The position numbers and the translations under genes were made by a program. Source: an uncultured Eubacteriales bacterium (GTDB lineage Bacteria > Acidobacteriota > Aminicenantia > Aminicenantales > UBA8522). Taken from it: a stretch of DNA of 64,000 nt. Every line of letters begins with the position of its first letter. Positions within the stretch are counted from its first letter, which is position 1. The stretch covers positions 20,501-84,500 of the forward strand of contig CAZLFV010000002.1 of the NCBI GenBank assembly GCA_964558915.1, written 5' to 3'. Below the pieces are notes generated by a model. That model was not told where the DNA came from. It was given only the letters and a program-made list of their open reading frames with translations, and did no database searches. Positions 3,847 to 18,978 of the stretch are shown piece after piece.

Positions 3847-4623
3847 TTAGGGCTGGAGGCTCCTCTTCCGTTCATCGACGATCCGCTGGTATTCGAGAGG
3901 ATGGAGGAGCCGGAGTTCTTTCCCGGTGATTTTTCCGTTGAGCCAGATCTTGCTCATCGGAAAGACCTCGGGGTTGAGATGGACGTTATACATGTGCCAG
4001 ATGATGACCGCCAGAAAAGCGAGCAAAGCCTCATAACCGTGGATCATCACAAGGACATCATGAATCCAGAGGGGGAAGAACCGGAGCGAAAGCTCGACGT
4101 TCCACATGAAGAACCCGCTGATGATCATCACCACCGAGCCCCAGCCAACGGCCCAGTATTCGAACTTTTCGATGAAATTATACCGGCCGAAAAGCGGCGG
4201 CTTCTCGAAAAGCCAGTAGCGGTGAGCCTCGAAGAATTTTTTAAAGACCCCCGTTTTATAAATAAGGCGGGTCAGCCCGACGTTGTGCCAAAAGAGTTCG
4301 AAGGCATCTTTGCCGTCGCGGAACTTGGGGATCATGTCTTTGAGGTTATTCTGGCCTCGGGCCGTCAGAGCCGCGGAGAGGATGTGCCAAATGAGATTCA
4401 GGATCAAAACGACCGCAGCTATCCTGTGGATGATCCCACGGATATAGAAAACTTGCTCCGTCGGGAAGAACCACTTGAAGGCCTTGAATTCGTAGAAGAA
4501 AAGAGGGAGCCCGGTGGCCATCAGCAGGAAGAACGTCCCGATTAGGAGATAATGCTGGACTCGTTCAGCGAGATTCATCCGCAGGAAGACCTCGTCGTCG
4601 GGGACAAGGGCAGAGCTATCCAC
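3847..4623 (-). CDS. Membrane dihaem b-type cytochrome, FdnI/HydC (Ni-hydrogenase cytochrome b) like
   Basis: 258 aa with four predicted TM helices. Conserved His sit in helices 1, 2 and 4 (VQHYLLIG, IIHRIAAVVLILNLIWHIL, VMIHGYEALLAFLAVIIWHMYNVH). Overlaps the upstream 11-haem gene by 8 nt, suggesting translational coupling. Confidence 0.7.
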   Translation of the reverse strand: MDSSALVPDDEVFLRMNLAERVQHYLLIGTFFLLMATGLPLFFYEFKAFKWFFPTEQVFYIRGIIHRIAAVVLILNLIWHILSAALTARGQNNLKDMIPKFRDGKDAFELFWHNVGLTRLIYKTGVFKKFFEAHRYWLFEKPPLFGRYNFIEKFEYWAVGWGSVVMIISGFFMWNVELSLRFFPLWIHDVLVMIHGYEALLAFLAVIIWHMYNVHLNPEVFPMSKIWLNGKITGKELRLLHPLEYQRIVDERKRSLQP

Positions 4624-5860
4624 GTTTTTCCCTTCTGATCATCCGTCTGAACAGGTCCGCAGCGATAAACAGGATGAAGACCGAAATAATAACCGAGATC
4701 ACGATAATGTAGATATTCTTAACGAGATGAGAGGCCTTGTATTTGGCCATGGCAATCGCCTCGGGGATCACATGAACCGGCCCCTCGGCAAAGTGGCGGC
4801 TGGCCCCGGGATGGCATTTGCCACAGGTAGCGGGCAGGTTTTCGGAGTTGATGGAAGATTTCGGGTCCGCGGAGGGCCGGATATCGTGAAAACCGTGGCA
4901 GGAAGCGCAGTTGGCCACGCGCGTCTCCCCGTATCTCGAAGCGGTTCCATGAAAGGTTTGGCTGTACGTTCTAAACCGCGATGTGAGAAAGCCGTACTCC
5001 CGGCTCAAGGCCACGTTGTCATGGCAGCGGGAACAGACCTCTGCAACCTTGGTTGTATACACCGTCGAATTCAAATCCTGGGGAGAAAGGATATTATGTT
5101 CGCTATGGCAGTCGGTGCAGACCGGAACGTCCTTGATCCCTTTGACATAGTCTTTGCCGTGCACTCCATCGAGATAGTCCCGCTGGATGCCGACGTGGCA
5201 TGTTCCACAGGTTGGGATGATGTTTTTTCGGGAGACCAGGGCGAGAGGATCGCTGACTGTCTTGATGTCATGGGCCCCGTGGCAGTTACTGCAGTTGGCT
5301 GATATTGTCAGCCCGGATTTCTTAAGGGCCCTGAAGTGAACGCTCTCCCGGTATTGACCGATAAACCCCGGTTCTTTTTTGGCCGCCACTCTCTGGAGGT
5401 GACATTTCTCGCAGGTGGAGGGGAGATTAATCGGGAATATGGTCGAGTCATATTCTGACTTGCCCTTGATGTCATGCGTCCCGTGACAATCCTTACAACT
5501 GACGGTGAGAGGGTTTGCGCCGGTCTCTGGGGCCATAAAATGGATGCTTGTCTCGAATTCCCGGCTGGCCTCCTCATGGCAACGGCTGCAGTCGATGGGT
5601 TTCAACGGAGAAGAATGGGGATAATCCCTGATTTTGGCCAGGTCGGCATGACAATCGACGCATGATATTTCTGCCCGACCGTGGCTGGAGGCCAGAAATT
5701 TTTCGTAATCCAAGAAAAGGGATTCTCCGGCTTCGGACTTGAGCTCGGCGTCTCCGTGGCAGGCAAGGCAGTCCTCGTTTGACTGGGAGGGGAAAAGGGG
5801 CGAGGCCGAGCTGAATATAATAAAGATAGCCCCGAGAATAACGGCTTTGCCTTGACCCAT
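4616..5860 (-). CDS. Undecahaem c-type cytochrome with signal peptide and C-terminal TM anchor
   Basis: 11 CxxCH motifs: CLACH, CVDCH, CSRCH, CKDCH, CEKCH, CSNCH, CGTCH, CTDCH, CSRCH, CASCH, CGKCH. Shows a repeated CxxCHGxHDI paired-motif pattern. N-terminal signal peptide; C-terminal hydrophobic helix IYIIVISVIISVFILFIAADLF. Confidence 0.9.
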   Translation of the reverse strand: MGQGKAVILGAIFIIFSSASPLFPSQSNEDCLACHGDAELKSEAGESLFLDYEKFLASSHGRAEISCVDCHADLAKIRDYPHSSPLKPIDCSRCHEEASREFETSIHFMAPETGANPLTVSCKDCHGTHDIKGKSEYDSTIFPINLPSTCEKCHLQRVAAKKEPGFIGQYRESVHFRALKKSGLTISANCSNCHGAHDIKTVSDPLALVSRKNIIPTCGTCHVGIQRDYLDGVHGKDYVKGIKDVPVCTDCHSEHNILSPQDLNSTVYTTKVAEVCSRCHDNVALSREYGFLTSRFRTYSQTFHGTASRYGETRVANCASCHGFHDIRPSADPKSSINSENLPATCGKCHPGASRHFAEGPVHVIPEAIAMAKYKASHLVKNIYIIVISVIISVFILFIAADLFRRMIRREKRG

Positions 5861-5864: not shown

Positions 5865-7127
5865 CTACTTTTTCAAAAGGCTTATTCTTTTGACGAAGCC
5901 GGGAATGAACCAGAGCACAGTGACGACGAGAACGGCGATGAGCAGGACAAGGAGGATCCTTTGAATATAAAACAGGGAAGGCGGGTTTTTTTGAGCGGCG
6001 CCGATGTGAATCTTGGCCGTGGCGATCTTTTCGGGCATATTCGGATGGCAGCTCGGCTGTCCGCAGGTCTTCCGCAGGTTGGCCGGGTTGATTTTGGACA
6101 GGGGATCAGAAGCCGGCCGGATGTCATGAGCGCCATGGCAGCTTGTACAATTGGCTGCGGCTTTATAGCCGAACCCGACGGCGATCCCGTGCAGGCTGTC
6201 GATGAACGTAGGTATCCGGTCTTCGGGCACCCCATATTTCTGCATGATTTCCGGCCGGGCGTGGCAGACCGAGCAGGTATCGATGACTTTGCTGAAAGAA
6301 GCAGGCGAACCGGTTTCTTTGGGTGAGGCGATGCCGTGCTCTCCGTGGCAGTCGACACAGAGCGGAGCATCGACATTCCCAACCAGGGCCTGCTGGCCGT
6401 GGAGGCTCTGCTTGTACTCGCCAAAAATGAGCTCGTGGCAGCGGCCGCAGGTCTGAGGCTGCTTGGCCATGATATGGGGCTCGCCGACGCCTTTGATGTT
6501 GTGGACGCCATGGCAGTCGGTGCAGACGGCGGCGAACTGGACAAGCCCTTTTTCAAAAAGGGCCTGGCCGTGAACGCTCTTCATGTATTCGTGATAAGGC
6601 ATTTCGCTGTGAATGTTGTACTTGATGACGACGTGCATATCTTCATGACAGGCCGAGCAGGTGAGGGGGATGTTCTTCCTGTTGACCGAGGATTCGGGGT
6701 TTCTGGCAGGCCGGATATTGTGCTTTCCGTGACAATCCCAGCACCTGGCCACCTCGCTGACTCCTCTTTCAAGGTAGGCCCGGCCGTGGACGCTGTCAGG
6801 GTAAGAAAGAGGAGTCTGTCCCTCCCCGGCCAGGCCGCTTTCACGATGACAGACGGCCGTGCAATTGACATCCGGAAGTTTCTTTTTATGGGGAAGATCT
6901 CCTTCTCGCTCTTCGGGCCGGACGAGATGGCAATCTGTGCAAGCGAGGAAAGCGTGCGCTGACCCGAGAAAATTTTTTTCATTAATCCTGAGGCTTTCGC
7001 TGACTTCCGCTTGGGAGCCGTGGCAGGCCAGGCACCGGGCGTTCACAGAGACGGTCTTTTCTGGGCCGGCCCAAAGGAACCCGATAGCGACGAGAAGAGA
7101 TAAAATGGTTACTTCAGGTTTTCGCAT
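5865..7127 (-). CDS. Undecahaem c-type cytochrome, paralog of 4616-5860, with C-terminal TM anchor
   Basis: 9 canonical CxxCH plus CTAVCH (CX3CH, nt 6846-6863) and CGQPSCH (CX4CH, nt 6045-6065). Both variants sit where the paralog has canonical sites. Same signal-peptide and C-terminal anchor architecture (ILLVLLIAVLVVTVLWFIPGF). Confidence 0.9.
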   Translation of the reverse strand: MRKPEVTILSLLVAIGFLWAGPEKTVSVNARCLACHGSQAEVSESLRINEKNFLGSAHAFLACTDCHLVRPEEREGDLPHKKKLPDVNCTAVCHRESGLAGEGQTPLSYPDSVHGRAYLERGVSEVARCWDCHGKHNIRPARNPESSVNRKNIPLTCSACHEDMHVVIKYNIHSEMPYHEYMKSVHGQALFEKGLVQFAAVCTDCHGVHNIKGVGEPHIMAKQPQTCGRCHELIFGEYKQSLHGQQALVGNVDAPLCVDCHGEHGIASPKETGSPASFSKVIDTCSVCHARPEIMQKYGVPEDRIPTFIDSLHGIAVGFGYKAAANCTSCHGAHDIRPASDPLSKINPANLRKTCGQPSCHPNMPEKIATAKIHIGAAQKNPPSLFYIQRILLVLLIAVLVVTVLWFIPGFVKRISLLKK

Positions 7128-7153: not shown

Positions 7154-7678
7154 CTATTTTGTCGCCGGTTTGTCGTGTTTGATCTTTTCCCAGGCTGCTG
7201 CATAATCGAACGCGATGCCGTGGGCGTTCTCATGGCAGGTCAGGCAGTACTTTTTGGCAGCATCCGCAGACTCATACAAGATGAGGCCGTTCTTCTGGGC
7301 CAGGGCTCTGTCTTTCATGATGGAGAGTTTTTTGTATTCGCTTCCCGGGCCGTGGCAAACCTCGCAGGTGTCGCCTTCCGCCTTGAGTTCAGGAGCCTTC
7401 TCGAAGAGAGGCGCGTGGCATTTAAGACACTGGGGGCTTTCAGCCGGGTTCTCGACTCCGGCGGCTTGGGCTTTCGGTGCGGCTTCAGGAGAGCTGAGCG
7501 CGGCGAAGGACACGGAATGCTTGGACTTCTGCCAGATCGGATGCTGCTGGCCCTGGATTTCCGTTTTGTGGCAGATCGCGCACTTGGCCGACCCCACGTA
7601 GGAAAAAGTCTGGGCGAACAGGCTGATGAGCAAAACCGCGGCAACGATGACGACAAGCAAGACGACCTTTTTCATCAT
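7154..7678 (-). CDS. Tetrahaem c-type cytochrome (cytochrome c554-like family)
   Basis: CAICH, CLKCH, CEVCH, CLTCH. The motif GSAKCAICHKTEIQGQQHPIWQKSKH is typical of the c554-like family. I place the start at MMKKVVLL, preceded by GGGAGG. The ORF-track start at 7747 overlaps the promoter -35 box. Confidence 0.85.
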   Translation of the reverse strand: MMKKVVLLVVIVAAVLLISLFAQTFSYVGSAKCAICHKTEIQGQQHPIWQKSKHSVSFAALSSPEAAPKAQAAGVENPAESPQCLKCHAPLFEKAPELKAEGDTCEVCHGPGSEYKKLSIMKDRALAQKNGLILYESADAAKKYCLTCHENAHGIAFDYAAAWEKIKHDKPATK

Positions 7679-7718: not shown

Positions 7719-7747
7719 ATTTTAGAAAACTCCCAAAGGATTGTCAA
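7719..7747 (-). promoter_or_regulatory. Sigma70-type promoter P3 for the distal cytochrome module
   Basis: Minus strand reads TTGACA (7747-7742), a 17-nt spacer, then TAAAAT (7724-7719). It lies in the AT-rich 123-nt gap between the nonahaem and tetrahaem genes. Confidence 0.6.
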
Positions 7748-7801
7748 TATTTTTTACTATAAAAACGATAATTTTTATAAAAATGATAGAAATAATAGGG
7801 T

Positions 7802-9085
7802 TTAGATTGAATCGGAGCGGACGTCGCGGATCTTAAGATAGAGGGCCAGGGCGAGCAGGAAGATAAAGACCGTAGCGATAACCAGGCCGGTCTTTCGAAA
7901 CTTTGCTTCTTTCAGGGCGGCGCCGCCGAGCGCCTTGACCTCGGCGATGACTGTGTTCCCTTCGCCGAGCTTCGCTTCCATGTCCTCGAGCGCCAGCCCG
8001 TGAGTCAGGTTCCGGACGAGGATCAGGGTCGTGGAGGCCTCCTGGAGCTTGAACCGGGGCTCGCTGACCTCGACGCCCTGTTTTTCAGCGCGTTCGAGAA
8101 TGCCTTCGGCGTCTCGAAATGCAGATACATAATCCGAGAGTTTCCGGCTGATCTCGACTCCGGTTTCATAAGGCTTTGTCCCGGTGTCATGGCACTGGCT
8201 GCAGACATCGTTGCTTCCTCCGGCGAGCATCTCGTCGGTGGGGATCAGGATCTTGTGGTTGCCGTGGCAGGCCTCGCATTCGGAAATCCCCAGCCCGTCG
8301 AATGCCACCTTGTGCGGGCTTTGGCTGAAGAGGTCTCCCGCGCTCGGATGGCACTGCCGGCAGACAAAAGCGACTGACGTCACTTGGGGCGGCGCAGCGC
8401 CGTGATTTCCATGGCAGTCATTGCAGACGGGCGCTGAGAGGTCCTTTTTATCGAAAAGGGCAGCGGCATGGACGCTCTGCTTGTAATCGCTGACTTGGTT
8501 GACGGGAAGGCCGTAGGGTTTCATCCCGTCCTGGCTCGAATGGCAGCGGCCGCAAGTCTCAGGGACGTTCCAGGCGAAAGTCGAGGACTTGGGGAAATTA
8601 GAGGCCTGGATTCCATGAACGCCATGGCAGTCTGTGCAGACGGCAACATTCGCATCGCCCTTTCGCAGGAGCTCGCCGTGCTTGCTCGTCCAATAGGCCT
8701 GGAGCTGGTCCACGCGGACGTTGGGATTGAAGCGCCTCATGTACTCGGAATTGGAATGGCAGGAGCCGCAAGCTTCCGGCACCTTGACCTTGCCGGGCGC
8801 TCCCTTGAAGGATTTGTCCTTGGCCAGCTCGATATCGTCCTCGAGGGGATTGCCGCCGTGGCAGTCCTGGCAGCCCAGGCCGAACTGCCGATGAATATCC
8901 GTCGCGAACCCGTCCGCAGGAGCGCGCAGGCTCTGGTCCTCCAATTCCCTGTGGCATTCCAAGCAGGAGTTTTTTTGTCCGGAGAGCGATAGAGGAAGGG
9001 TGAGCAGCAGACTGAGCAGAAGAACTGAGAACAGCTTTGGCTGCTTCCTTTTTTTGTTCTGCTCTTTATTTTTTTTCACTTTCAA
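7802..9085 (-). CDS. Nonahaem c-type cytochrome with C-terminal helical region and TM anchor
   Basis: CLECH, CQDCH, CGSCH, CTDCH, CGRCH, CNDCH, CRQCH, CEACH, CSQCH. Signal peptide LFSVLLLSLLLTLPLSLSG. C-terminal TM helix GLVIATVFIFLLALALYL. Confidence 0.9.
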   Translation of the reverse strand: MKVKKNKEQNKKRKQPKLFSVLLLSLLLTLPLSLSGQKNSCLECHRELEDQSLRAPADGFATDIHRQFGLGCQDCHGGNPLEDDIELAKDKSFKGAPGKVKVPEACGSCHSNSEYMRRFNPNVRVDQLQAYWTSKHGELLRKGDANVAVCTDCHGVHGIQASNFPKSSTFAWNVPETCGRCHSSQDGMKPYGLPVNQVSDYKQSVHAAALFDKKDLSAPVCNDCHGNHGAAPPQVTSVAFVCRQCHPSAGDLFSQSPHKVAFDGLGISECEACHGNHKILIPTDEMLAGGSNDVCSQCHDTGTKPYETGVEISRKLSDYVSAFRDAEGILERAEKQGVEVSEPRFKLQEASTTLILVRNLTHGLALEDMEAKLGEGNTVIAEVKALGGAALKEAKFRKTGLVIATVFIFLLALALYLKIRDVRSDSI

Positions 9086-9102
9086 AATTTCTTGGTTTTC
9101 TT

Positions 9103-10176
9103 TTATGTCTTGGGCGCAAGGTAGGTGAGCGCCGTCATGACGATAATGTAAAGCAAAACGATGCCTCCTGCGATCGAAAAACCCGGGCTCTTCACCTCCC
9201 GGCCAGACCTCCGGTCAAGATAAGGAACCAACATCCAGAGCAATCCACCCAGCATGAATCCAAGTATGGCCAGGACCTCGCCTTCCAGGGAGAAAATATG
9301 AGCGGGGATGATTTTAAGAGTCGTGAACATGAATGTAAAATACCATTCTGGCTTGATACCGGCCGGCGTCGGGGCAAAAGGGTCTGCTTTTTGACCTATT
9401 TCCCAGGGAAAAAAAACACAGATGACCCCGATAGCGGTCAGGACGAGAAGCCAGCCCAGCGCATCTTTAAGGATGAAGGCGGGGAAAAAAGAAATTTCCT
9501 TTGTCTCGGAGACCCCGATGGGCTTGCTCATCCCCAGGACCTGGACCAGGAAGATATGGATCCCTATGAGGACAAGCGCAACAGCCGGCAGGATAGCGAC
9601 ATGAAGCCAGAAGAATCGGCTCAGTGTCGCGCCGGAAACCTCCGGGCCTCCGAGGATAAACGTCTTGAGGGCTTTGCCGACGACAGGGACAGCTCCGGCG
9701 ATGTCCGTTCCTACCCGGGTGGCGAAAAACGAGAGCTCGTTCCAGGGGAGAAGATAGCCGCTGAACCCGAAAGCCAGGAAGAAGAGAAGCAGGAAGAACC
9801 CGCTGACCCAAGTGAGATCCCTCGGCGGTCGGTAGGCTTTCAGGAAGAATGTGCTGAACATGTGGATGAATATGACTCCGATCAGGATGTTGGCCGTCCA
9901 GCTGTGGACAGAGCGGATGAGCCACCCGAATTTGACCTGACTCATGATAAACACGATGCTTTCATGAGCCGCGTCGACCGAGGGAGTGTAATATAGCAGG
10001 AGGAGAATTCCCGTAATGACCTGCACGGAAAAAAGAAAAAGGCACAGCCCGCCAAAGTAATACCAGAAGGAATACTTATGCTCTGGGACTTTTTTTTTCT
10101 TGCCGAATTCAAGCAGGGCGGAAAATTGGAATCTGGATTCGAGGTAGTCGGTGGCCTTCCTAATGAGTTGGCTCAT
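9103..10176 (-). CDS. Cytochrome b of a Rieske/cyt b complex (b6 plus subunit IV fused type)
   Basis: Colinear with cytochrome b6: FGWLIRSVHSWTANILIGVIFIHMF and RFFWLHVAILPAVALVLIGIHIF supply the four haem-b His ligands. The Qo-site PEWY motif is present in the C-terminal part (IKPEWYFTFMF). Start set at MSQLIRK (10176), just after the Rieske stop. Confidence 0.9.
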   Translation of the reverse strand: MSQLIRKATDYLESRFQFSALLEFGKKKKVPEHKYSFWYYFGGLCLFLFSVQVITGILLLLYYTPSVDAAHESIVFIMSQVKFGWLIRSVHSWTANILIGVIFIHMFSTFFLKAYRPPRDLTWVSGFFLLLFFLAFGFSGYLLPWNELSFFATRVGTDIAGAVPVVGKALKTFILGGPEVSGATLSRFFWLHVAILPAVALVLIGIHIFLVQVLGMSKPIGVSETKEISFFPAFILKDALGWLLVLTAIGVICVFFPWEIGQKADPFAPTPAGIKPEWYFTFMFTTLKIIPAHIFSLEGEVLAILGFMLGGLLWMLVPYLDRRSGREVKSPGFSIAGGIVLLYIIVMTALTYLAPKT

Positions 10177-10177
10177 T

Positions 10178-10603
10178 CTAAGATTTCTTCGAGACAAAAA
10201 TATCGCCGCTCCCTACCTCGATTTCGTAAGCCTCCAAGGGGCGCGGCGGCGGACCGGATATGACATTCCCGGCTAGGTCAAACCGGCCGTTGTGACAGGG
10301 GCAATAGAGGGTGCCGGTGTCGCTTTCGTAGCTCACGGTGCAGGTCAGGTGAGTGCACACGGCGGAAAAAGCCCGGAGCTGACCGTCGGCAGTATTGATT
10401 AACAGCGCGGGAGAGGACCCGAATTTGAACAGCTTGGCGGAGTTGGGCGCCAGCTCACCCACTTTGGCGGCGGCGATTTTCCTGGCCACGGCTTCAGCCT
10501 GGCGCGGAGGAATGAGATACCGGACGATGGGATAAAGAAGGGAAGTCGCAGTCCCCAGGAGAGACCCTCCGAGAAAGAAATTGACGAACTTTCGCCTCTT
10601 CAT
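10178..10603 (-). CDS. Rieske 2Fe-2S iron-sulfur subunit
   Basis: The two Rieske boxes CTHLTC and CPCHNGRF are present. N-terminal MKRRKFVNFF is twin-arginine-like and is followed by a TM helix. Confidence 0.9.
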   Translation of the reverse strand: MKRRKFVNFFLGGSLLGTATSLLYPIVRYLIPPRQAEAVARKIAAAKVGELAPNSAKLFKFGSSPALLINTADGQLRAFSAVCTHLTCTVSYESDTGTLYCPCHNGRFDLAGNVISGPPPRPLEAYEIEVGSGDIFVSKKS

Positions 10604-10607
10604 TTTC

Positions 10608-12593
10608 CTATTTTTCTCCGATAGATTTTACCTTTTGTTTGAGTTTTGTCAACAGCCCTTCAATGAACTGAGAGTTGTGGACCGAGAGGCTGCCGTCATT
10701 TTCGAGCATCCTGAGCATCTCCGCAATTTCAGCCAGTTTGGCCCGGTCGTACTCACCCAGGTCGAGCCTTTTCTTTTCCTCCATGCCGGCGAGGAGCGAT
10801 TCCCGCTGCTTTTTATAGGCATCCTGCCATTTTTCAAATATCTTCTTGTAGCTCTCCTCATGGCAATTCGAGCAGGTGGAGCTTCCGGCCGGACGCAATT
10901 GTCCTTTTTCCTGGCTGTGGCAATCAGCGCAAGCGACGTTGGCCTCGGCCATCATGTCCTTGGGGACTTCCCAAGCGGCCAGAGTCCCCCCCGCATAGAG
11001 TGTCTTTTGCAGGACATGGCACCTTCCACAGTCTGTCTTGGGATCCTGGTGGTGGCAAGCGGCGCACTGTTTTTTGGAGCCGATGAACTCCCCGTGTTTT
11101 TTCGCGTTGGAATGGCAGGTCGAACACTCCATTTTCTGGCTGACGACATGCGTTTTATGGGGAAAGGAAAGCCCGTAGAGCTGGCTGTTGATCTCTTCGA
11201 TCCCGGCATGGCACTGGGAGCATTGCGAGGGAATGTCTTGTGTTTTGGGCAGGAATCTTTCGGGCGTGTAAGAGGAACCGATGAGCTGGAGCGCTTCCTC
11301 CATATAGGCAAAGGCAGCCTGAAGCAGTTCCTGCGAGTAGGCCATGTTATGGACGCTCTTGCCTCTCTCAACGACGTCGATATTGAAAGCCGCATCGTCC
11401 AGCAACGACCCAGCCTTTTCCCGATGGGGGACCTTGCTCATTCTTACTTCCTGGGAAGACCTTTGATAGATCCTCCTGATCTGGTTCAGCCTTTTCTCAG
11501 TCGAGACCTGCCAGTTCCGGAGGATTCGGGCGAATCCTGTTCCGTGACAGGATTCGCAGGCCTGCTCCTTGGAGATCATGGTCTCGCTCTTGACCAGCTT
11601 GCCGCCTGCTTCCTCATGAAACATGTGGCAGCCCTTGCAGCTCAGTCCTTTTTCCAGCATGACATTGGGCAGCGCGTGGGCAACGCCTTTTCCGCCTTCC
11701 CCTGTGTAGAGGATCTTTTGGGCCTGATGAAACCCCGTATGGCAGGTCCGGCAATCGGCGATTGTTTCGATATCTTTAACGATTTTGTGCTGGATCTGGA
11801 GATGGCATTGGTTGCACTCAATCTTATGGGCTGTGATATGAGTCGAATGGATCAAATCTGTATCAGAATATTGATCCAGCCTTTCTTTCTCAAAATGGCA
11901 CTTGTAGCAGTTTTCGCGAGGGACGGCTCCGTCGCCGACAATGACCTGACTGTGGCACTTATCGCAGTTGAAGCCCTTTTCAAATACGAGAGTGTGGTCG
12001 AACCGGGATCCCTTTTCTGATATCAAATCCTGCTGGATGTGGCAGTGGGAGCACTCGCCGATCTGGGGGTAGTGTTCGCTCTTTTTAAAATGGCAGATAA
12101 AACATGTCGATTCTGTGACAGTTATGTGCTCCCCTTGAACGATCTGGGAATGGCAGCTTGTGCAGCGGAGCTTCTTTCCTCTTTTCAAATCCTCGAAGTG
12201 GATCTTGTGGTCGAAGACGACCGTCTTGAATTCCACCCGGCCCTGGAGAAGCCTGGTGTCGTGGCAGCCCGGACGGAGGCAGCTTTCATCCGGAATCTCT
12301 GCCCAGGGTCTGGACTTGAGGTAAAGCTTGCTCCAATACCGGCCCAGCTGCATCAGCCCCTCCACTTTTGCCCTGAAGAAAGATTTCAACCCTGGAGGAT
12401 AATGGCAGACGCTGCACTGGATGGTGCCGTGGGAAGAGGTTTTCCAGCTCTGATAGAAGGGCTTCATGTAGTGGCAGGTCGAGCAGAACCGGGATTGGGA
12501 CGTGATTTCTGCCGCGGCGATGAAAAGAAGCAGGAAAAACGCAAGACCACAAAGGAATATCAGACTCCTTTTCTTGGTGATCCGTATCTTCAT
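10608..12593 (-). CDS. 18-haem c-type cytochrome with N-terminal NapC/NirT-type membrane anchor
   Basis: N-terminal TM helix followed by SRFCSTCHYMKPFYQSWKTSSH, a NapC/NirT-like signature. 17 CxxCH plus CLRPGCH (CX4CH, nt 12261-12281) in 661 aa. Confidence 0.85.
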   Translation of the reverse strand: MKIRITKKRSLIFLCGLAFFLLLFIAAAEITSQSRFCSTCHYMKPFYQSWKTSSHGTIQCSVCHYPPGLKSFFRAKVEGLMQLGRYWSKLYLKSRPWAEIPDESCLRPGCHDTRLLQGRVEFKTVVFDHKIHFEDLKRGKKLRCTSCHSQIVQGEHITVTESTCFICHFKKSEHYPQIGECSHCHIQQDLISEKGSRFDHTLVFEKGFNCDKCHSQVIVGDGAVPRENCYKCHFEKERLDQYSDTDLIHSTHITAHKIECNQCHLQIQHKIVKDIETIADCRTCHTGFHQAQKILYTGEGGKGVAHALPNVMLEKGLSCKGCHMFHEEAGGKLVKSETMISKEQACESCHGTGFARILRNWQVSTEKRLNQIRRIYQRSSQEVRMSKVPHREKAGSLLDDAAFNIDVVERGKSVHNMAYSQELLQAAFAYMEEALQLIGSSYTPERFLPKTQDIPSQCSQCHAGIEEINSQLYGLSFPHKTHVVSQKMECSTCHSNAKKHGEFIGSKKQCAACHHQDPKTDCGRCHVLQKTLYAGGTLAAWEVPKDMMAEANVACADCHSQEKGQLRPAGSSTCSNCHEESYKKIFEKWQDAYKKQRESLLAGMEEKKRLDLGEYDRAKLAEIAEMLRMLENDGSLSVHNSQFIEGLLTKLKQKVKSIGEK

Positions 12594-12638
12594 TCAATAT
12601 CGCTTTCTTCGATGGTCCGGTTGAGTCTGCGGCTGCTC

Positions 12639-13457
12639 TTAAGCATAGCTATGCAACCCCGCCAGCAGGTAATTCACGCCAAAGTAGGTGAACAGGGCGG
12701 CGAGAAATCCGATGATGGCGATGGCGGCCGACCGCCGGCCCTTCCAGCCCATGACGATCCGGGTGTGGAGATACAGGGCAAAGACAAACCAAGTAATCAG
12801 GCTCCAGACCTCTTTCGGGTCCCAGCTCCAATAACTTCCCCAAGCCTTGTAGGCCCAAACCATGCCGAAGACAAGGCCGCCTAGGGTGAAGAGAGGAAAA
12901 CCGATGGCAATAGAGCGGTAGCTGATCGAGTCCAGTTTTTCCGCTGTGAGCGCTGATTTCGCCGCTTTCCCTCTTCGTTCCTTGGCGTCGGCCGCAAGGT
13001 ACATGATGCTCGTAATGAAAGCGATGGCAAAAAAGGCTTCGCCGATTAGGGTAACAGAGACATGTAGCCAGAGCCAGTAACTCTGCAGCGCCGGAACTAG
13101 AGGAGTCGTCTCTTTCGGCATGAGAGGCGAAGACGCCAAAGCCATAAGGGCGATGACAATGAGCATCAGGTAGCCGGCCGGTCTTTTGACCTTGTATTTT
13201 GCCTCAATAATAACAAAGGCCAGGATGGACGCCCAGGCCAGAAAAGAGAGGGACTCGTACATGTTGGTGAAAGGCGCATGGCCGCTTTCCACAGTCCTCA
13301 AAATGAGGGCCAGCGTATGGACGAGGAGGCCGGTCAAAGCCACAGAGAAACCAATCCTGGCCCTGTTTTCCTTATTGGAGAAAAGATGGGAGAAATAGAA
13401 GGCAGCCGCTAAAGCATAAAGGATGAAGGCGAGCAGAAAAAAAGTGGATTCGGTCAT
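12639..13457 (-). CDS. ccsA: System II cytochrome c biogenesis protein CcsA/ResC (haem export and ligation)
   Basis: Polytopic membrane protein with the WWD-type motif WGSYWSWDPKEVWSLITW. 4-nt overlap with resB. Confidence 0.9.
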   Translation of the reverse strand: MTESTFFLLAFILYALAAAFYFSHLFSNKENRARIGFSVALTGLLVHTLALILRTVESGHAPFTNMYESLSFLAWASILAFVIIEAKYKVKRPAGYLMLIVIALMALASSPLMPKETTPLVPALQSYWLWLHVSVTLIGEAFFAIAFITSIMYLAADAKERRGKAAKSALTAEKLDSISYRSIAIGFPLFTLGGLVFGMVWAYKAWGSYWSWDPKEVWSLITWFVFALYLHTRIVMGWKGRRSAAIAIIGFLAALFTYFGVNYLLAGLHSYA

Positions 13458-14809
13458 TTGCGTATCCTGAGAGAATTGATGATGCTTTCAAATTCCGTTT
13501 GAAAGGCCTCCCGGGCTTTGACGGAAATTCCGCCGGCCGTGACCTCTGTCTTCCCCTGGCTGTCCTCTAAAATAATCTTTAACTCTCGTGGCGGCCAGTA
13601 AAAGGCCAGGCCAAGCCCCACCATCAGCAGGACGCAGCCGACCCAGATGAGCGAGACGCCCGGGTCCTTGGCCACGTGAATAACTGAGTAGCTCGGCGCC
13701 CGGACATCTTTGAGTTCGAGAGTGATATCTGCTTCCTTGGCGCCGGAGTGGAGACGCGAAAAATCCGGGAACCTGGCGAAAATCCAGCCGGAGAACACCT
13801 TTTCTGTTCCTATCCAGCCTTCGATGAAGGCCGCTGGATTATTGGGCTCGAGCGAGCGGCTGGCCGGCTGGTTTTTTTCGTCCAGGACGAAATCAGGGAT
13901 GAACCGGACGGCGTTGAGCACAAGGGATTCACCGTTCAGGGCCGTTTTCTCGCCGATTTTCAGCCAGGCCTTTTTAAGGTAACTTGGGTCCGGCTTTTTC
14001 TTCACCCAGACCTCGAGCGACGGATGGTCCCAATCCGAACCGTAGCCGCTTTGATAAAACACGTAGCCTCGATGATTGAGGGGAGAGTTGACTTCGACTG
14101 TTTTTTGGAAGAGGGGCTTTCCGGCCTCAGTCACAGTGAGGAGGCTTTTCCAATCCTTGACGCTTCCGTTAGGATAGTATTCCGTCACGAATTGATCCAG
14201 CCGGACAGTAAAATCCGCCCCCGGGACTGAAAGAGTCCGGCCTTCGGTAAAGGTGAGGTCCTGGCGGAAACTGCCGAGCCCGCTGGCAATTCCGCCGGCC
14301 AAGATCACCAGGAGGCCCAAGTGGACGACATCAGACCCGAACCAGCCGAGGACCCTCTTCCGGGCGGTCAGGCAAGATCTATTATCGGTTCTGACTTCCC
14401 TGAGCCGGTAGCGCCGGCGGCGGAGTTCCTTCTTGACCATTTCTCTGGTTTCGGCGGCGGACAAACCGACTTTGAACTTGTCCTTGATTTTCAAAGCGAG
14501 AATGTTCTTGGGTTCGGTCTCCAACTTGGTCTGGAAGGTCCGCCGGAATTTGGGAAAGAGCCTTTCGAGCGTGCAGACGATGATATTCACGGCAAAGAGC
14601 GCAAGCAGGCCGACAAACCAGAAGGACTGATACAGCCTGGTGAACTGCAGGCGCTCAAGAAGCGCCCCGAGCTGGCCATAGCGGACAAGATATTCCTGGG
14701 TGCTTCTTCCCTGGGGGATTAGCGTTCCGACGATCGAGGCGCAGATGAGGATAATCAGTAGGGTGATGGCCACCCGGACCGAAGTGAAAAAATTGAGCAG
14801 GGCTTTCAT
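13454..14809 (-). CDS. resB: System II cytochrome c biogenesis protein ResB/Ccs1
   Basis: 451 aa. N-terminal MKALLNFFTSVRVAITLLIILICASIVGTLIPQG is a typical ResB start. Large soluble loop and C-terminal TM helix; coupled to ccsA. Confidence 0.85.
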   Translation of the reverse strand: MKALLNFFTSVRVAITLLIILICASIVGTLIPQGRSTQEYLVRYGQLGALLERLQFTRLYQSFWFVGLLALFAVNIIVCTLERLFPKFRRTFQTKLETEPKNILALKIKDKFKVGLSAAETREMVKKELRRRRYRLREVRTDNRSCLTARKRVLGWFGSDVVHLGLLVILAGGIASGLGSFRQDLTFTEGRTLSVPGADFTVRLDQFVTEYYPNGSVKDWKSLLTVTEAGKPLFQKTVEVNSPLNHRGYVFYQSGYGSDWDHPSLEVWVKKKPDPSYLKKAWLKIGEKTALNGESLVLNAVRFIPDFVLDEKNQPASRSLEPNNPAAFIEGWIGTEKVFSGWIFARFPDFSRLHSGAKEADITLELKDVRAPSYSVIHVAKDPGVSLIWVGCVLLMVGLGLAFYWPPRELKIILEDSQGKTEVTAGGISVKAREAFQTEFESIINSLRIRK

Positions 14810-14879: not shown

Positions 14880-16115
14880 CTAGGTGCGGCCTTTACGCAT
14901 CTCCGCTGCGAGAGTCTGGATCTCTGTGAGCGACCGCCTCATTTCGCTCCAACCGTACCAGAGAGCGTAGTCCGGATTGGCATGAAAAGTCCCCTGAAAA
15001 GAGCGCATCCGGTGTTCGAGAAACATGACGAAGAGCTTCTGCTCCACTTCGGTTGGCGCGTCATGGAAAGTCAGAAGGTCGGGAAACCGATAGGCGTAGC
15101 TTGCCGGTTTCGGCAGGATGCCGTCCTGGTAAAGGGAGGCGACTTCTCGGATGGCCTCGGCCATCAGATGGTCGACTTCTTTGATCATCTCATCGCCTTT
15201 TTTGAGCTCTCCTTTGGCAAAATTCGCGCTATGGCAACTGGTGCAAATCCCGATCATCTTGTCCCGTTCTTTCTGCCAGGCTTCCTGGGTCAGACGGGCG
15301 ACGTCGGCCGCCTTGACGACATCAAGCCTTGGCGTGGGGTTACCGCTCGGGTCCAGAACGCCGAGAGCCTGAAGAATTGTGGCTCTGTCTGCAGCCCATT
15401 GCCTGTCCTCAGGCATCGGCAGCCGCACGGCCAGAAATCCCCAGGCAGTCCGGACTTCGTGGTTTTTCTCCTGCATATGGCAGGTCTGGCAGGAGGGCGC
15501 GGCAGTTGATTCGGGGAGGATTTTATTTTGTTTCAAGAGAAAGCGGACGCCGTGCTTGGAAGCGGAGTACATCTCCCATTGAGGATGATCGAAGCCCATA
15601 TGGCAGGTCTGGCAGGCTTGGGGCTGCCGGGCTTCGGTGACGGAAAAAATATGCCGCGTATGGCAGGCGTCGCAAGAGGCCCGGCCGAACCCTGCGCCGG
15701 CCTTATCGAGCTCCGCTATTTCCGCCTCTGTTTTCAGCCCGATCTTGTGGCATCCGCCACAGCCCTTCATTCCTTCCATCATTGCCACGGGCTGAGCGTG
15801 CGCTGTCGGCATGGCTTTCATCGCCGCCCAGGCCAGGGCGTGCTTGCCCCGCTTGAACTGGTTCACCTGGTCTTCGTGACAGGCAGCGCATGTTTCTGGC
15901 GTAGGGATCCCGGCCTTGGCAAAGTCCAAGGCGGTCTTGTGTCCTTCGCCGTGGCAAATAGAACAGCCCACCTCATTTTTGCTGTGCTCGCTCAGCAGCC
16001 AATCGCTGACGATGTAGGGTGTGGCCTTTTTATGACACTCCATACATTCCTGACCAAGGAGCGCCGGCGCAACAAGAAAACTCAAGAAAATCCCCACGAC
16101 GATTCTTCGCTTCAT
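14880..16115 (-). CDS. Octahaem cytochrome c of the hydroxylamine oxidoreductase (HAO) family
   Basis: 8 CxxCH: CMECH, CSICH, CAACH, CGGCH, CDACH, CQTCH, CQTCH, CTSCH. HAO-family spacing and landmarks are present: CDACHTRH, CQTCHMGFDHPQWEMYSASKHG, and a C-terminal helical domain after haem 8. Has a signal peptide. Confidence 0.8.
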   Translation of the reverse strand: MKRRIVVGIFLSFLVAPALLGQECMECHKKATPYIVSDWLLSEHSKNEVGCSICHGEGHKTALDFAKAGIPTPETCAACHEDQVNQFKRGKHALAWAAMKAMPTAHAQPVAMMEGMKGCGGCHKIGLKTEAEIAELDKAGAGFGRASCDACHTRHIFSVTEARQPQACQTCHMGFDHPQWEMYSASKHGVRFLLKQNKILPESTAAPSCQTCHMQEKNHEVRTAWGFLAVRLPMPEDRQWAADRATILQALGVLDPSGNPTPRLDVVKAADVARLTQEAWQKERDKMIGICTSCHSANFAKGELKKGDEMIKEVDHLMAEAIREVASLYQDGILPKPASYAYRFPDLLTFHDAPTEVEQKLFVMFLEHRMRSFQGTFHANPDYALWYGWSEMRRSLTEIQTLAAEMRKGRT

Positions 16116-16638: not shown

Positions 16639-18978
16639 TTACCGCCAGGTGTACTTGGCCATGTTGCCGCCCAGACTTCCGATGGAGTCCGCGAGCAATT
16701 GAGCGATATAGAGGGGGTTGTGGATGAACCCGCAGGGTTCCTTCTTGCTCATCTGAAAATTATAGGCGGCCTTGAGCATGGCCGCGCTGAATCCGTACCC
16801 GTTGCTGGAAGTGAGCTCAGCAGGGTCTGCAATTCCGTCCCCGTCGGTATCTTTAAAGAAATATGGATAACTTATTTCGCTATAGACAATCGGGGCGCCG
16901 ATACTCCTCCCGTAGGCCTGAAGCTGCGTGTAAAGCGCGTCCTCGAGGCCCTTGATCTCCGCCTGCAGGGATTCGTTCTTGTTCCCATCTCCGTCGTAGT
17001 CAGGAGTCTGGGCCGGCCGGATCCCTTCGAACTCGAACTGGCTGGGGTCAGCGCCTGGATGGGGCTGGGCGATGTCCTGGCCATGGCAGGGCGCGCAATC
17101 GGCGGGGTTGGGTGCTTGGACGTTGTGGAATAAGGCGTCCGAATCATCGTGCTTCCTGTTGAAGCTCTTGGTTCCCATGTGACACTCGACGCAATTCGTA
17201 AAAAGCCCGTTGTGGTTGGTGAATATATTGCGGCCGGCATAGGTTTTTCCGCTGAATTCGTATCCGCCGCGGACTTCGGAACCGAAGAAGGAAGCCGCCG
17301 CTGCATAATAATGGATATTGGTGAAGCTGTACGGTCCCGGGCCGCCGGCAATCGCCCTGTCAACCGAGGACTTCGAAGCTCTTCCCTGGTGGCAGTTGAG
17401 GCACAGGTTGGAGCTGTCGGCCAGGTTCACGCTCACTCCGGAGGGAAATGTCACCGGACCGGCTGGCCTCGTCTGGGGCGGCACAATATGGCAGGTCAGG
17501 CAGAGCAGGCCGTTGGAAATATCCATGGCCTTGTCAATGGTGCCGTTATCGAGCAGGTAGGGGAGGCCTTGGGCGCTGTGGCATTTGGCGCAAGTTGACG
17601 GAACCTCTCCCTCCCCGTCCCAATGCCTCCAGGCCTCGGCTGATCCGTCGAAATGCCCTTCATCAGTCCGGACAAGTCCGCGGCCGGAGCCGGGTGCATA
17701 TTGCAGATAGGCATCCGCGGCCGATTCCAAGGAGCTTCGGGCAAGAATCTCATCATTCGGCAAAGGAAAGGTTCGCTCTTGGCCGCCCGCCTTAGACCGG
17801 CGCCCCGGCCGCAAGGGCCGCGTAAGACTTGGTTTCGAGACCGGAGTCTGGGTAGCGATTTCGGCACCTCTTGAAGTATTAAGGTCCTCGATTGAATCGT
17901 AAAGGAGTTCGATGATGTATTTTCCGTTATGAACATACTGGCATGGGTCTTTAATGCAAACCTGGAGGTTATAAGCGGCCTTGAGCAGGCGGGCGGTGAA
18001 GGAGCTATACCCGTTGCTTGACTCTGCCTCATTGGAGTCGACAACTCCGTTGTCGTTTTTATCATTGAAGAAGTAGGGATACGCGATTTCGTCGTAGGCG
18101 ATCGGCTTCCCGACGACATCTCGTGCGTAAGCGCGCATCGCGTTGTACAGAATCTCCCGGATTGTCTCGATCTCGTAGAAAATCCCCTCGGTGATATTCC
18201 CGTCCCCGTCGTAGTCAACCCAGGAGCCGTAATAGCGGATGTTTTTTGGGTTTTTGACCCCAGTGTGACAGGTGTTGCAGGCGTCCAGGTCAACCTCAAG
18301 AGAGTGCGGATCATGACAAACCTGACAGGCGTTGTAGCCGGGAATATGGGCGAACCGGGAGTCGTAAGATTTTTCGGCGTATTGATATCCTCCCCGGACG
18401 ACGGTCCCGAGCTGAGTAGCGGCAGCGGCATAGTAGTGGACATTGACAAACCTCAGCCTGGAACTCGGTTCATCGTCTGAGGTGACGCCTGACCCAGCGA
18501 TCGCAGTGTCGACAGATTTTGTCGAGGCCCTTCCCTGGTGACATTCCATGCAGAGCGTTTCTGGGCCGAGGCCTTCGATTTTCACTCCCGAAGGAAAGAT
18601 TGCATAGGTGCGGTTATGGACGACGCCTTTATCAGGGTCGGAATGGCAGGCGGCACACTCGACCGTTGTGCCCAGAGGAGCGGCATTGTCGACCGTATCC
18701 GGTGCAGTTCCGTCGGCGCCCAGATAATCCCTCAACCCGGGCGTGCTGTGGCACTTGGCGCAGGTTGTCGGGACCTGGCCTTCTTCATCCCAGTGCTTGA
18801 AGGCTTCGTCCCCTTTTTGAGCATGCGCCGAAGTAGACCACAGTCTTTGCGCGTGATCTCTTTTTGACTGAGGTTTTATGACCTCGTGGCTGGCCGTTCT
18901 TGCCAGGAGAAACGAACAGATCGCAATGACAGCCAAAAGGCCTAAAAGGTATGGTCTCCTGAACATCGTCTCCTCCAA
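16639..18978 (-). CDS. Decahaem c-type cytochrome built from two tandem pentahaem modules (putative cell-surface component)
   Basis: Module 1 has CAKCH, CAACH, CMECH, CQVCH, CNTCH. Module 2 has CAKCH, CLTCH, CLNCH, CVECH, CAPCH. The two ~350-aa halves are clearly colinear (HWDxEGxVPxTCAKCHS, FPSGV, CxxCHQGRAS, HYYAAAA, RGGY, YDGDGN, YPYFF, NGY, LKAAYN). N-terminal signal peptide. Confidence 0.85.
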   Translation of the reverse strand: MEETMFRRPYLLGLLAVIAICSFLLARTASHEVIKPQSKRDHAQRLWSTSAHAQKGDEAFKHWDEEGQVPTTCAKCHSTPGLRDYLGADGTAPDTVDNAAPLGTTVECAACHSDPDKGVVHNRTYAIFPSGVKIEGLGPETLCMECHQGRASTKSVDTAIAGSGVTSDDEPSSRLRFVNVHYYAAAATQLGTVVRGGYQYAEKSYDSRFAHIPGYNACQVCHDPHSLEVDLDACNTCHTGVKNPKNIRYYGSWVDYDGDGNITEGIFYEIETIREILYNAMRAYARDVVGKPIAYDEIAYPYFFNDKNDNGVVDSNEAESSNGYSSFTARLLKAAYNLQVCIKDPCQYVHNGKYIIELLYDSIEDLNTSRGAEIATQTPVSKPSLTRPLRPGRRSKAGGQERTFPLPNDEILARSSLESAADAYLQYAPGSGRGLVRTDEGHFDGSAEAWRHWDGEGEVPSTCAKCHSAQGLPYLLDNGTIDKAMDISNGLLCLTCHIVPPQTRPAGPVTFPSGVSVNLADSSNLCLNCHQGRASKSSVDRAIAGGPGPYSFTNIHYYAAAASFFGSEVRGGYEFSGKTYAGRNIFTNHNGLFTNCVECHMGTKSFNRKHDDSDALFHNVQAPNPADCAPCHGQDIAQPHPGADPSQFEFEGIRPAQTPDYDGDGNKNESLQAEIKGLEDALYTQLQAYGRSIGAPIVYSEISYPYFFKDTDGDGIADPAELTSSNGYGFSAAMLKAAYNFQMSKKEPCGFIHNPLYIAQLLADSIGSLGGNMAKYTWR

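Follow-up and report, generated by a model that had tools for sequence, protein, structure and literature searches.

The gene cluster

The multihaem gene cluster described here lies in a stretch of 64,000 nucleotides (the window) from contig CAZLFV010000002.1 (assembly GCA_964558915.1, positions 20,501 to 84,500 of the forward strand). It belongs to an uncultured member of the Aminicenantes, also known as OP8 or as the class Aminicenantia of the Acidobacteriota. Its centre consists of a Rieske protein and a cytochrome b that are accompanied by two large multihaem cytochromes c, one upstream and one downstream:

10608..12593, minus strand: 18-haem cytochrome, 661 aa, with a tetrahaem module of the NrfH/NapC/cM552 type and 14 further haems
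10178..10603, minus strand: Rieske [2Fe-2S] protein, 141 aa, with twin-arginine translocation (TAT) leader, transmembrane (TM) helix and both cluster boxes
9103..10176, minus strand: unsplit cytochrome b (b6 and subunit IV parts fused), 357 aa, or 364 aa from an upstream TTG
7802..9079 (or 9085), minus strand: nonahaem cytochrome c, 425 aa, with 9 CxxCH motifs, signal peptide and C-terminal TM helix

Here, we show that the trio of Rieske protein, cytochrome b and nonahaem cytochrome is a removable cassette in a conserved multihaem island of the Aminicenantes. Synteny was followed by tblastn over 73 related genomic loci, from which the homologue alignments were built as well, and the type of complex was judged from profile and PDB bit scores together with diagnostic traits. 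Relatives of the cytochrome b (74–89% identity), of the 18-haem protein and of the nonahaem cytochrome come almost only from metagenome-assembled genomes (MAGs) of Aminicenantes, two closed genomes included.

A preliminary description of this DNA had presented the four co-oriented genes as the whole unit. Their coordinates and named motifs were found as described, well beyond what chance could produce, the motifs being invariant or nearly so in 44–59 homologues, and the gene calls of 661, 141, 357 and 425 aa are reproduced in an independent ENA assembly of the same locus. The four-gene unit is too short, however, because the operon comprises 11 tightly packed genes on the minus strand (3847–16115). 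It starts with an HAO-family cytochrome and continues with ResB, CcsA, the 18-haem protein, the Rieske protein, cytochrome b, the nonahaem cytochrome, a c554-family cytochrome and two 11-haem cytochromes up to a membrane b cytochrome as the last gene. The stop codon of the 18-haem gene is separated by 4 nt from the Rieske start, and only a 1-nt gap lies between the Rieske and cytochrome b genes. Altogether the operon proteins carry 61 c-haem motifs (8+18+9+4+11+11, with conserved CX3CH and CX4CH sites counted). Upstream on the same strand, and separated from the HAO gene by 523 nt, the genes of a putative outer-membrane conduit contribute 20 more.

Rieske protein and cytochrome b

The Rieske protein is recognised by the Rieske profile of Pfam (E 8.1e-16) as well as by TM_PetC (E 8e-9). 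Its cluster boxes read CTHLTC and CPCHNGRF and its twin-arginine leader RRKF, all of which had been reported before; CTHLTC, CPCH and the leader in the form RR(K/N/R)F are conserved in 51 sequences. The membrane helix and hinge resemble those of PetC (LYPIVRYLIPP versus LYPLVKYFIPP in PetC). Among solved structures the Rieske domain of 8hn2_A (70 bits), labelled as b6-f iron-sulfur subunit, comes closest, and we take it to be the Rieske protein of Chlorobaculum tepidum. In high-potential complexes a Ser/Tyr pair raises the Rieske potential (PMC12954380). Since these two positions are occupied by Gly and Phe at this locus, we infer a low-potential cluster of the menaquinol type.

Both halves of a classical cytochrome b (Cytochrome_B PF00033, E 3.6e-48; Cytochrom_B_C PF00032, E 4.1e-9) are found in one open reading frame (ORF) of 357 aa. 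The haem b ligands His91/His105 and His192/His207 align to the ligands of b6 and are conserved in 46 sequences. The PEWY motif of the Qo site (residues 276–279) is kept in 46/46, so that the assignment as b6/subunit-IV-like with four haem b histidines stands. Cys35 of b6, which binds haem ci, aligns with Tyr40, again in accordance with the first description; the site reads YFGG instead of CxGG here and Y/F-F-G-G in all 46 sequences. Seven TM helices are predicted, and hydropathy gives two TM segments after PEWY; by this count an eight-helix, bc1-like cytochrome b was rejected. The N-terminal four-helix part fits best to b6 of plants and cyanobacteria (168.6 bits for spinach b6 versus 157.6 bits for Pseudomonas bc1). 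Because helix D aligns to b6 without a gap, its two histidines are 14 residues apart and thus have the spacing of the b6 type. The best NCBIfam matches are ExtP (NF040969, 206.2 bits with a cut-off of 290) and generic b6 (205 bits), and neither cut-off is reached.

Pfam and NCBIfam profile searches gave no match to a cytochrome c1 or f family among the operon proteins, as already stated in the preliminary description. The core is, by all these features, a predicted Rieske/cytochrome b (bc-type) complex that is b6-like, unsplit and devoid of the haem-ci cysteine.

The nonahaem cytochrome

The gene that follows cytochrome b encodes a membrane-tethered cytochrome, described as such from the beginning, with a signal peptide and a C-terminal TM helix that is preceded by a three-helix stalk. 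A C-terminal anchor is found in c1 and f likewise. All nine CxxCH motifs are kept in 44/44 homologues, and their alignment shows eight invariant histidines outside the motifs together with an invariant Met188. This pattern fits eight bis-His haems and one His/Met haem; speculatively, the latter could be a higher-potential entry point. An AlphaFold2 model based on 46 aligned sequences has a mean predicted local distance difference test (pLDDT) score of 65. Only the C-terminal helices (304–426) are modelled with confidence and the haem domain is poor, as expected for a model without haems. A Foldseek comparison of this model with the PDB yielded no match below E = 1, and a PDB sequence search returned only generic multihaem matches.

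An orthologue of the nonahaem gene follows cytochrome b in 45/45 loci where the contig allows this to be seen. In addition, when the whole library was searched with a profile, cytochrome b proved to be naturally fused to a multihaem cytochrome in some of the closest clusters at 50% identity; two or three such clusters are independent of each other. The nonahaem cytochrome aligns over its whole length with the C-terminal half of the P0241 fusion (36% identity, E 7e-94), and it matches the C-terminal halves of the P0255 fusion (39% identity, E 2e-86) and of a 903-aa protein from locus L077 (42% identity). In the fusions P0243/P0391 (Thermoanaerobaculia) and P0255/P0393 the TM parity places the haem domain in the periplasm. 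P0241 (790 aa, on an NCBI contig of 5358 bp) was rejected as clean fusion evidence on account of its odd TM parity: it retains a segment resembling a signal peptide and adds just one TM helix, which would leave its haem domain in the cytoplasm. As co-occurrence is complete and cytochrome b is naturally fused to this partner in other phyla, we infer that the nonahaem cytochrome is the cognate c subunit and replaces c1 or f.

The core can also stand by itself, since one contig carries only the Rieske gene and a cytochrome b–nonahaem fusion surrounded by housekeeping genes. Another composition is seen in an Eisenbacteria MAG (CCZUAY010000009.1, L075 4426–10965), where genes for MtrA (10 haems), MtrB_PioB, a Rieske protein, cytochrome b (52% identity) and a nonahaem-like cytochrome (52%) lie together. 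The nonahaem-like cytochrome is divided between two ORFs there, perhaps owing to a frameshift, and the cluster adjoins feoAB and an iron-dependent repressor.

Among 150 representatives of the nearest cytochrome b clusters, 36 (e.g., P0244) carry between 1 and 11 CxxCH motifs, and most of these are longer than a bare cytochrome b; they include a dihaem–cytochrome b fusion in Vampirovibrionales. Fusions to c-type haem domains thus seem to be common in this part of the cytochrome b family.

The 18-haem cytochrome and the removable cassette

Upstream of the core, 17 CxxCH motifs and one CLRPGCH (CX4CH) make up the 18 haem sites that had been counted at the outset. All of them are kept in 58–59 of 59 homologues, the CX4CH site varying as CL(R/Q)xGCH. 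The protein has one N-terminal TM helix (residues 10–28). Its N terminus matches NapC/NirT PF03264 with 33.3 bits (gathering cut-off 24.1), which upholds the proposed NapC/NirT-type anchor. The NrfH profile aligns to residues 13–151 and gives 39.9 bits against an equivalog cut-off of 134.2; among the NCBIfam equivalogs the cut-offs of both NrfH and NapC are not reached. The tetrahaem module comprises the sites C37, C60, C105 (CX4CH) and C144, and its CSTCHYM aligns to the CxxCHxM haem-1 motif of Desulfovibrio vulgaris NrfH (2j7a_C), with CHYMKP retained in the most frequent variants among the 59 homologues. A PDB sequence search returned NrfH for the N terminus and otherwise generic multihaem matches. 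A second, NapC-type quinol module, as postulated earlier, is thus apparently encoded in the operon. The protein is probably a separate menaquinol dehydrogenase of the NrfH/cM552 type fused to a 14-haem wire.

How this protein relates to the core can be read from the 57 loci informative for its downstream neighbourhood. The Rieske/cytochrome b/nonahaem trio follows directly in 47 of them. In seven the trio is missing and the next gene, c554 or a multihaem cytochrome, lies about 200 nt away, and two loci show other arrangements. The remaining one, on the closed genome CP070750.1 (L052 12441–15492), carries a different cassette in the same slot, where a 278-aa multihaem cytochrome is combined with an NrfC-like 4Fe-4S protein that is TAT-exported and with a membrane protein of the NrfD family. 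Here one quinone module is swapped for another at the same locus. At least eight species possess the 18-haem protein in full length with all 18 motifs while the core is missing at this site. A neighbour-joining tree calculated for the 18-haem protein shows the trio-less loci as one clade and two isolated tips, nested among trio-carrying loci. As they fall at three or more places on this gene tree, at least three separate losses or replacements of the cassette are suggested. Conversely, the Rieske/b–nonahaem core occurs in other phyla with no 18-haem gene nearby. The 18-haem protein is, judged by this distribution, separable and not an obligate subunit of the predicted Rieske/b core.

The conserved backbone and the neighbouring modules

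The remaining genes of the operon are as follows:

14880..16115, minus strand: HAO-family octahaem cytochrome, 411 aa, Sec signal, 8 CxxCH motifs (PF13447, E 3.6e-28)
13454..14809, minus strand: ResB/CcsB, System II cytochrome c maturation (PF05140, E 1.5e-83)
12639..13457, minus strand: CcsA/ResC, System II cytochrome c maturation (PF01578, E 5.6e-53)
7154..7678, minus strand: c554-family tetrahaem cytochrome, 4 CxxCH motifs (PF13435, E 4.6e-10)
5865..7127, minus strand: 11-haem cytochrome with C-terminal TM anchor, 9 CxxCH motifs, one CX3CH and one CX4CH
4616..5860, minus strand: 11-haem cytochrome (MHC414) with C-terminal TM anchor, predicted c-type half of a split CbcL-like module
3847..4623, minus strand: membrane b cytochrome of the FdnI/Ni_hydr_CYTB type (b258), 258 aa (PF01292, E 1e-11; TIGR01583, E 1.9e-12)

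The constant backbone of the island consists of the HAO-like octahaem cytochrome, ResB/CcsA, the 18-haem protein and c554. The HAO gene, the fourth upstream of the Rieske gene within the operon, is present in 31 loci, and its 8 CxxCH motifs are kept in 32/32 homologues; its best PDB match is the HAO-like protein of Kuenenia (6h5l_A, E 5e-34). It is absent from many cassette-bearing loci (L001, L016, L018, L020, L048–L050 and L073) and present in cassette-less loci that reach far enough upstream. It therefore tracks the 18-haem backbone and not the cassette. The c554-family protein keeps its 4 CxxCH motifs in 51/51 homologues and is a probable periplasmic shuttle.

The non-canonical haem sites are invariant across homologues (Cys105 of the 18-haem protein; Cys89 and Cys355 of the cytochrome encoded at 5865–7127). 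These CX4CH and CX3CH sites share the operon with its own ResB/CcsA pair, which raises the possibility of a dedicated maturation.

In Geobacter, CbcL consists of a multihaem c domain fused to a b cytochrome of the FdnI/HydC type. MHC414 and b258 are together a predicted split version of such a CbcL-like quinol module, because both halves are fused into one protein of 647 aa on a Thermoanaerobaculia-like contig (L077 127–2070), which is 39% identical to MHC414 and 34% to b258. The same contig encodes a NapC-type multihaem cytochrome, a Rieske protein and a cytochrome b–multihaem fusion. With this module, three putative quinol entry points can be counted (NrfH-type, Rieske/b and CbcL-like), in line with the earlier notion that more than one is encoded.

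Upstream of the operon the following genes were found:

21919..22383, minus strand: Rrf2-family transcriptional regulator (PF02082, E 2.6e-33), directly upstream of the island on the same strand
20861..21751, minus strand: probable MtrA/DmsE-family periplasmic decahaem cytochrome, 10 CxxCH motifs, true start uncertain
18985..20850, minus strand: probable outer-membrane beta-barrel, 621 aa, between two decahaem cytochromes
16639..18978, minus strand: ten-haem cytochrome, 775–779 aa, 10 CxxCH motifs, candidate cell-surface partner of the conduit

The MtrA-type decahaem cytochrome matches 6r2q_A with E 3e-25; we take this chain to be MtrA although the PDB file labels it otherwise. It scores 178.8 bits with TIGR03508 (cut-off 192.2). 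It was found in 29 related loci and the ten-haem cytochrome in 19. The barrel protein has a signal peptide and the C-terminal sequence FGYRWN, and its family shows weak matches to OMP_b-brl (12/18 members, best 1.3e-7) and Porin_4 (5/18, best 4.2e-9). An identification as MtrB was rejected, since hhalign gives a probability of 2.9% against an MtrB_PioB protein and only 1/18 members matches PF11854, at E 0.005. The ten-haem cytochrome has an internal two-fold repeat with WD(E/G)EG(Q/E)VP(T/S)TCAKCHS segments and a weak MtrC/MtrF-domain match. In a PDB sequence search with the 779-aa protein no significant similarity to solved MtrC, MtrF or OmcA was found, only generic multihaem matches. The arrangement of MtrA-like decahaem, barrel and ten-haem cytochrome is conserved upstream in at least 14 related loci, and the three proteins look like a porin–cytochrome conduit. 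The Rrf2-family protein may be an iron-, redox- or nitric oxide (NO)-responsive regulator of the island; some members of this family sense NO.

Further away in the window there are a multicopper-oxidase-like protein of 764 aa (60352–62646, minus strand), a PAS histidine kinase with two response regulators (46348–49719, minus strand) and a POR-like thiamine pyrophosphate enzyme beside an ADP-forming acyl-CoA synthetase-like protein (22647–27190, plus strand). The last pair would be consistent with fermentative acetate formation.

Promoter-like elements

The region was scanned for sigma-70-like promoters, and the two best matches, both 11/12, were followed up:

10625..10652, minus strand: sigma-70-like match TTGACA-16-TAAAAT, 11/12, inside the 3' end of the 18-haem gene
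7719..7747, minus strand: sigma-70-like match, 11/12, upstream of the c554-like gene

Both fall at module boundaries. The first lies 49 nt upstream of the Rieske start codon. A match of at least 10/12 within 150 nt upstream of the Rieske gene is present in 26/52 loci, nearly always about 49 nt from the start, and upstream of c554 in 38/48 loci; none was found in the related loci upstream of cytochrome b, the nonahaem gene, MHC414 or CcsA. A terminator scan of the region gave matches near shuffle expectation. These data are only suggestive, but the cassette probably has its own promoter, with the Rieske-proximal element overlapping coding sequence.

Relation to known systems

Rieske/cytochrome b genes surrounded by multihaem cytochromes have been known since the description of Geobacter GSU2930-2937, the extKLMNOPQS or 'Cbc6' cluster, in 2010 (PMC2825233; see also PMC5877670). 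Such surroundings are less unusual than the preliminary description had suggested. Like our locus, the Ext/Cbc6 cluster places a Rieske protein and a b6-like cytochrome b among multihaem cytochromes (there with 12, 10, 5 and 2/4 haems), lacks c1 and f, lies beside a porin-like gene of the outer membrane and recurs across a clade of anaerobes, and its ExtP is the best NCBIfam match of the cytochrome b described here. However, Geobacter has a short b6-type ExtP and, separately, ExtQ, whereas the present cytochrome b is unsplit, and with 206 bits the match to ExtP falls short of the cut-off of 290 and is on a par with that to generic b6 (205). Nor are the flanking cytochromes orthologous; they gave only weak matches to ExtN (E ~1e-6). 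Moreover, the Aminicenantes locus has NrfH-type 18-haem, HAO, Ccs and CbcL-like genes and no selenoprotein or rhodanese genes.

In the anammox complexes Kuste4569-4574 and Kustd1480-1485 the place of cytochrome f is taken by a cytochrome c with six or eight haems (PMC12954380). They share with our locus the multihaem c subunit in place of f and, in one of the two complexes, an HAO-like octahaem cytochrome encoded with the core. The anammox multihaem subunit is TM-anchored and wraps the complex with long helices; the confidently predicted three-helix stalk of the nonahaem cytochrome likewise leads into a TM helix. Differences are seen in the cytochrome b, which in anammox bacteria is split into a b6-like part and subunit IV with haem cN but is unsplit and devoid of the ci cysteine here, and in the cytoplasmic NAD(P) oxidoreductase subunit, a domain not found in any gene between 3847 and 21751. 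The anammox Rieske proteins have potentials of +303 and +335 mV; one contains the full Ser/Tyr pair and the other Ser with Phe for Tyr, compared with Gly/Phe at our locus.

The cytochrome b of Chlorobi is not known to carry haem ci. It is also long and unsplit (PMC5600118, subfamily J), and the Chlorobaculum tepidum complex oxidises menaquinol (PMC10172866). Its electrons, however, go to a monohaem cytochrome c-556, which supplies the photosynthetic reaction centre, in contrast with a nonahaem cytochrome in a non-phototroph. The unsplit b6-like cytochrome b without haem ci recalls this Chlorobi type as well as clade G', which comprises long cytochromes b from large, conserved operons whose function is unknown (PMC5600118); the likeness is drawn from traits only. 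With b6f complexes the core shares an N-terminal part closest to b6, the 14 residues between the helix D histidines, the seven TM helices and the PetC-like TM/hinge of the Rieske protein. It differs in that cytochrome b is not split, the haem-ci cysteine and cytochrome f are missing and the Rieske protein has no Ser/Tyr pair. A bc1 complex, by contrast, has a cytochrome b with eight helices and 13 residues between the helix D histidines, and a monohaem c1.

The first ~150 residues of the 18-haem protein have the architecture of NrfH, NapC and cM552, i.e. one TM helix and four haem sites starting with CxxCHxM. However, 14 further haems are fused to this module, haem 3 uses CX4CH and the NrfH score stays at 39.9 (cut-off 134.2). 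HAO, c554 and cM552 constitute the hydroxylamine:quinone redox module (HURM) of nitrifiers, for which a reverse, nitrite-reducing form was proposed (PMC3701875). HAO-family, NapC/NrfH-type and c554-family genes also share one operon here, with a short HAO (411 aa), and by this analogy the island backbone resembles both HURM and reverse HURM.

The putative conduit follows an mtrA, mtrB, mtrC-like order (MtrA-family decahaem, barrel of ~620 aa, ten-haem protein of ~775 aa) as in MtrCAB, MtoAB and PioAB. Unlike in these systems, the barrel has no significant MtrB/PioB match and the outer cytochrome none to MtrC, MtrF or OmcA structures. Geobacter uses ImcH, CbcL and CbcBA as inner-membrane quinol oxidases at different acceptor potentials. 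A comparable set of alternative multihaem quinol oxidases of the NapC/NirT and CbcL types is apparent in our island, likened by architecture, but here the modules stand in one operon together with a Rieske/b complex.

Multihaem-flanked Rieske/b clusters occur also in Methanoperedens (PMC4683180). Menaquinol-dependent Rieske/b complexes that feed periplasmic reductases are mentioned in PMC6896113 by way of its references 59 and 60. In the searchable literature we found no description of the Aminicenantes cluster or of a cytochrome b–nonahaem family. Hence, the kind of system is known from Geobacter, anammox bacteria and Methanoperedens, and what is new is the Aminicenantes variant with its pairing of cytochrome b and nonahaem cytochrome.

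Proposed electron transfer and alternative explanations

We consider it rather probable that Rieske protein, cytochrome b and nonahaem cytochrome make up one self-contained complex within a modular island, with the 18-haem protein as a separate menaquinol dehydrogenase and the CbcL-like proteins as a third module. In such a complex menaquinol would be oxidised at the PEWY-containing Qo site. One electron would pass via the low-potential Rieske cluster and the nine haems to the soluble c554-like tetrahaem cytochrome and further to a sink, and the other via haems bL and bH to a Qi site without haem ci, so that a proton-motive Q cycle would result. The NrfH-type 18-haem and CbcL-like modules would offer non-electrogenic routes, and all three modules of the inner membrane would deliver electrons to a common haem pool in the periplasm. 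Two candidate sinks are encoded in the island, namely an outward conduit of MtrA-type cytochrome, barrel and second decahaem cytochrome and, for nitrogen oxides, the HAO-like enzyme. Which route is taken may follow acceptor potential, by analogy with ImcH, CbcL and CbcBA of Geobacter. A further step would be that the c554-like shuttle wires the complex specifically to the MtrA-type conduit. This would amount to Q-cycle-coupled extracellular electron transfer beside two non-electrogenic oxidases, with separate promoters switched by acceptor potential. We put this forward tentatively, as an idea that is on balance doubtful.

The preliminary description had combined all four central proteins in a single 27-haem complex with two quinol sites (NrfH-type and Qo) that would act as a dual-entry or bifurcating quinol oxidase. 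The close spacing of the genes and the order kept in 47/57 loci are in its favour, as is the presence of NapC-type multihaem genes near Rieske/b–nonahaem genes in Kryptonia, Bipolaricaulota, Armatimonadetes and Thermoanaerobaculia-like contigs. In anammox bacteria, furthermore, extra multihaem and HAO-like subunits co-migrate with the Rieske/b core (PMC12954380). Yet eight species keep an intact 18-haem protein with no core at this site, the core with its nonahaem cytochrome is found without an 18-haem neighbour, the gene order relative to the core differs between phyla (L055, L064), and a promoter-like element separates the two units. Fusions join cytochrome b to the nonahaem cytochrome and, among the representatives inspected, never to a NapC-type domain. 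The single complex is thus not supported and we regard it as improbable. A second alternative, rather unlikely in our view, concerns the sink. The cassette could serve nitrogen-oxide respiration and not extracellular transfer, with electrons flowing via c554 to an HAO-like nitrite, NO or hydroxylamine reductase in the manner of anammox Kuste4569-4574 or the Qcr of Campylobacter and Wolinella, and with the 18-haem protein as non-electrogenic alternative (reverse HURM). An HAO-family gene lies in the same operon and is present in 31 loci, the c554-family and NapC/NrfH-type proteins complete a HURM-like set (PMC3701875), and nitrite and NO couples are high enough in potential for a Q cycle (PMC12954380). 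The upstream regulator, moreover, belongs to a family with NO-sensing members. Against this, HAO is missing from many cassette loci and follows the 18-haem backbone instead, and in Eisenbacteria a cytochrome b of the same clade stands directly after MtrA and MtrB_PioB with no HAO.

The direction of electron flow could also be inverted. Electrons from extracellular Fe(II), a cathode or syntrophic partners would then enter through the MtrA-type conduit and reach the quinone pool via the NrfH- or CbcL-type modules, while the Rieske/b–nonahaem complex would run in reverse or pass some electrons to an acceptor of higher potential. Conduits of the MtrAB/PioAB/MtoAB type work in both directions across organisms (PMC4412085, PMC5566968), the Eisenbacteria genes for MtrA, MtrB_PioB, Rieske protein and cytochrome b lie beside feoAB and an iron-dependent repressor, and Aminicenantes MAGs were proposed to be iron oxidisers owing to cyc2 (PMC7005843, PMC7914226). 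Nevertheless, domain searches of the island genes revealed no terminal oxidase or nitrate reductase, and for a Rieske/b complex of the menaquinone type to run backwards would make little thermodynamic sense if its donor haems already lie below menaquinone. We therefore regard inward flow as distinctly improbable.

Several points weigh against the self-contained complex and its proposed role in outward electron transfer, and the chief weakness is thermodynamic. Multihaem cytochromes and MtrA-type conduits usually have low potentials, and since a Q cycle requires an acceptor above the quinol, the two fit poorly together. The barrel has no demonstrable MtrB homology and is only a probable outer-membrane beta-barrel. 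P0241 may be a read-through or an assembly artefact. The Rieske-proximal promoter-like element lies within codons (Leu-Thr-Lys ... Ile-Lys-Ser), so that its conservation could stem in part from constraint on the encoded protein. A genome that lacks the cassette here may have a Rieske/b copy at another site. Finally, the 18-haem gene stops immediately before the Rieske gene, and NapC-type, CbcL-type and Rieske/b modules co-occur in other phyla (L055, L064, L067, L077); because of this spacing and co-occurrence the 18-haem protein and the core may still be linked functionally or physically.

Implications

For extracellular and anaerobic respiration alike, it is a central open question by which route electrons exit the quinone pool and how much energy this step conserves. 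The known metal reducers rely on NapC-type or CbcL-type oxidases that do not pump protons, and a Rieske/b complex with a nonahaem subunit beside an Mtr-type conduit would be a proton-motive alternative. Multihaem cytochromes have been considered as acceptors of early or anaerobic bc complexes (Dibrova et al. 2013, as cited in PMC5317091), and the present complex would add a clear case to the idea as it is reported there. Taken together, the loci that naturally keep, lack or replace the cassette and the natural cytochrome b–nonahaem fusions define a minimal unit and supply ready-made constructs for biochemistry.

The predicted complex is conserved in at least 45 loci, mostly from Aminicenantes MAGs, and related versions are found in Eisenbacteria, Thermoanaerobaculia, Kryptonia and Bipolaricaulota. 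Aminicenantes have been discussed as fermenters or as carriers of cyc2 (PMC7005843, PMC7914226). They are abundant in anoxic sediments and aquifers, where they are usually modelled as fermenters. The complex would change this picture and, if the tentative reading with wiring to the conduit is true, a phylum that is generally regarded as fermentative would possess a three-tier respiratory gearbox.

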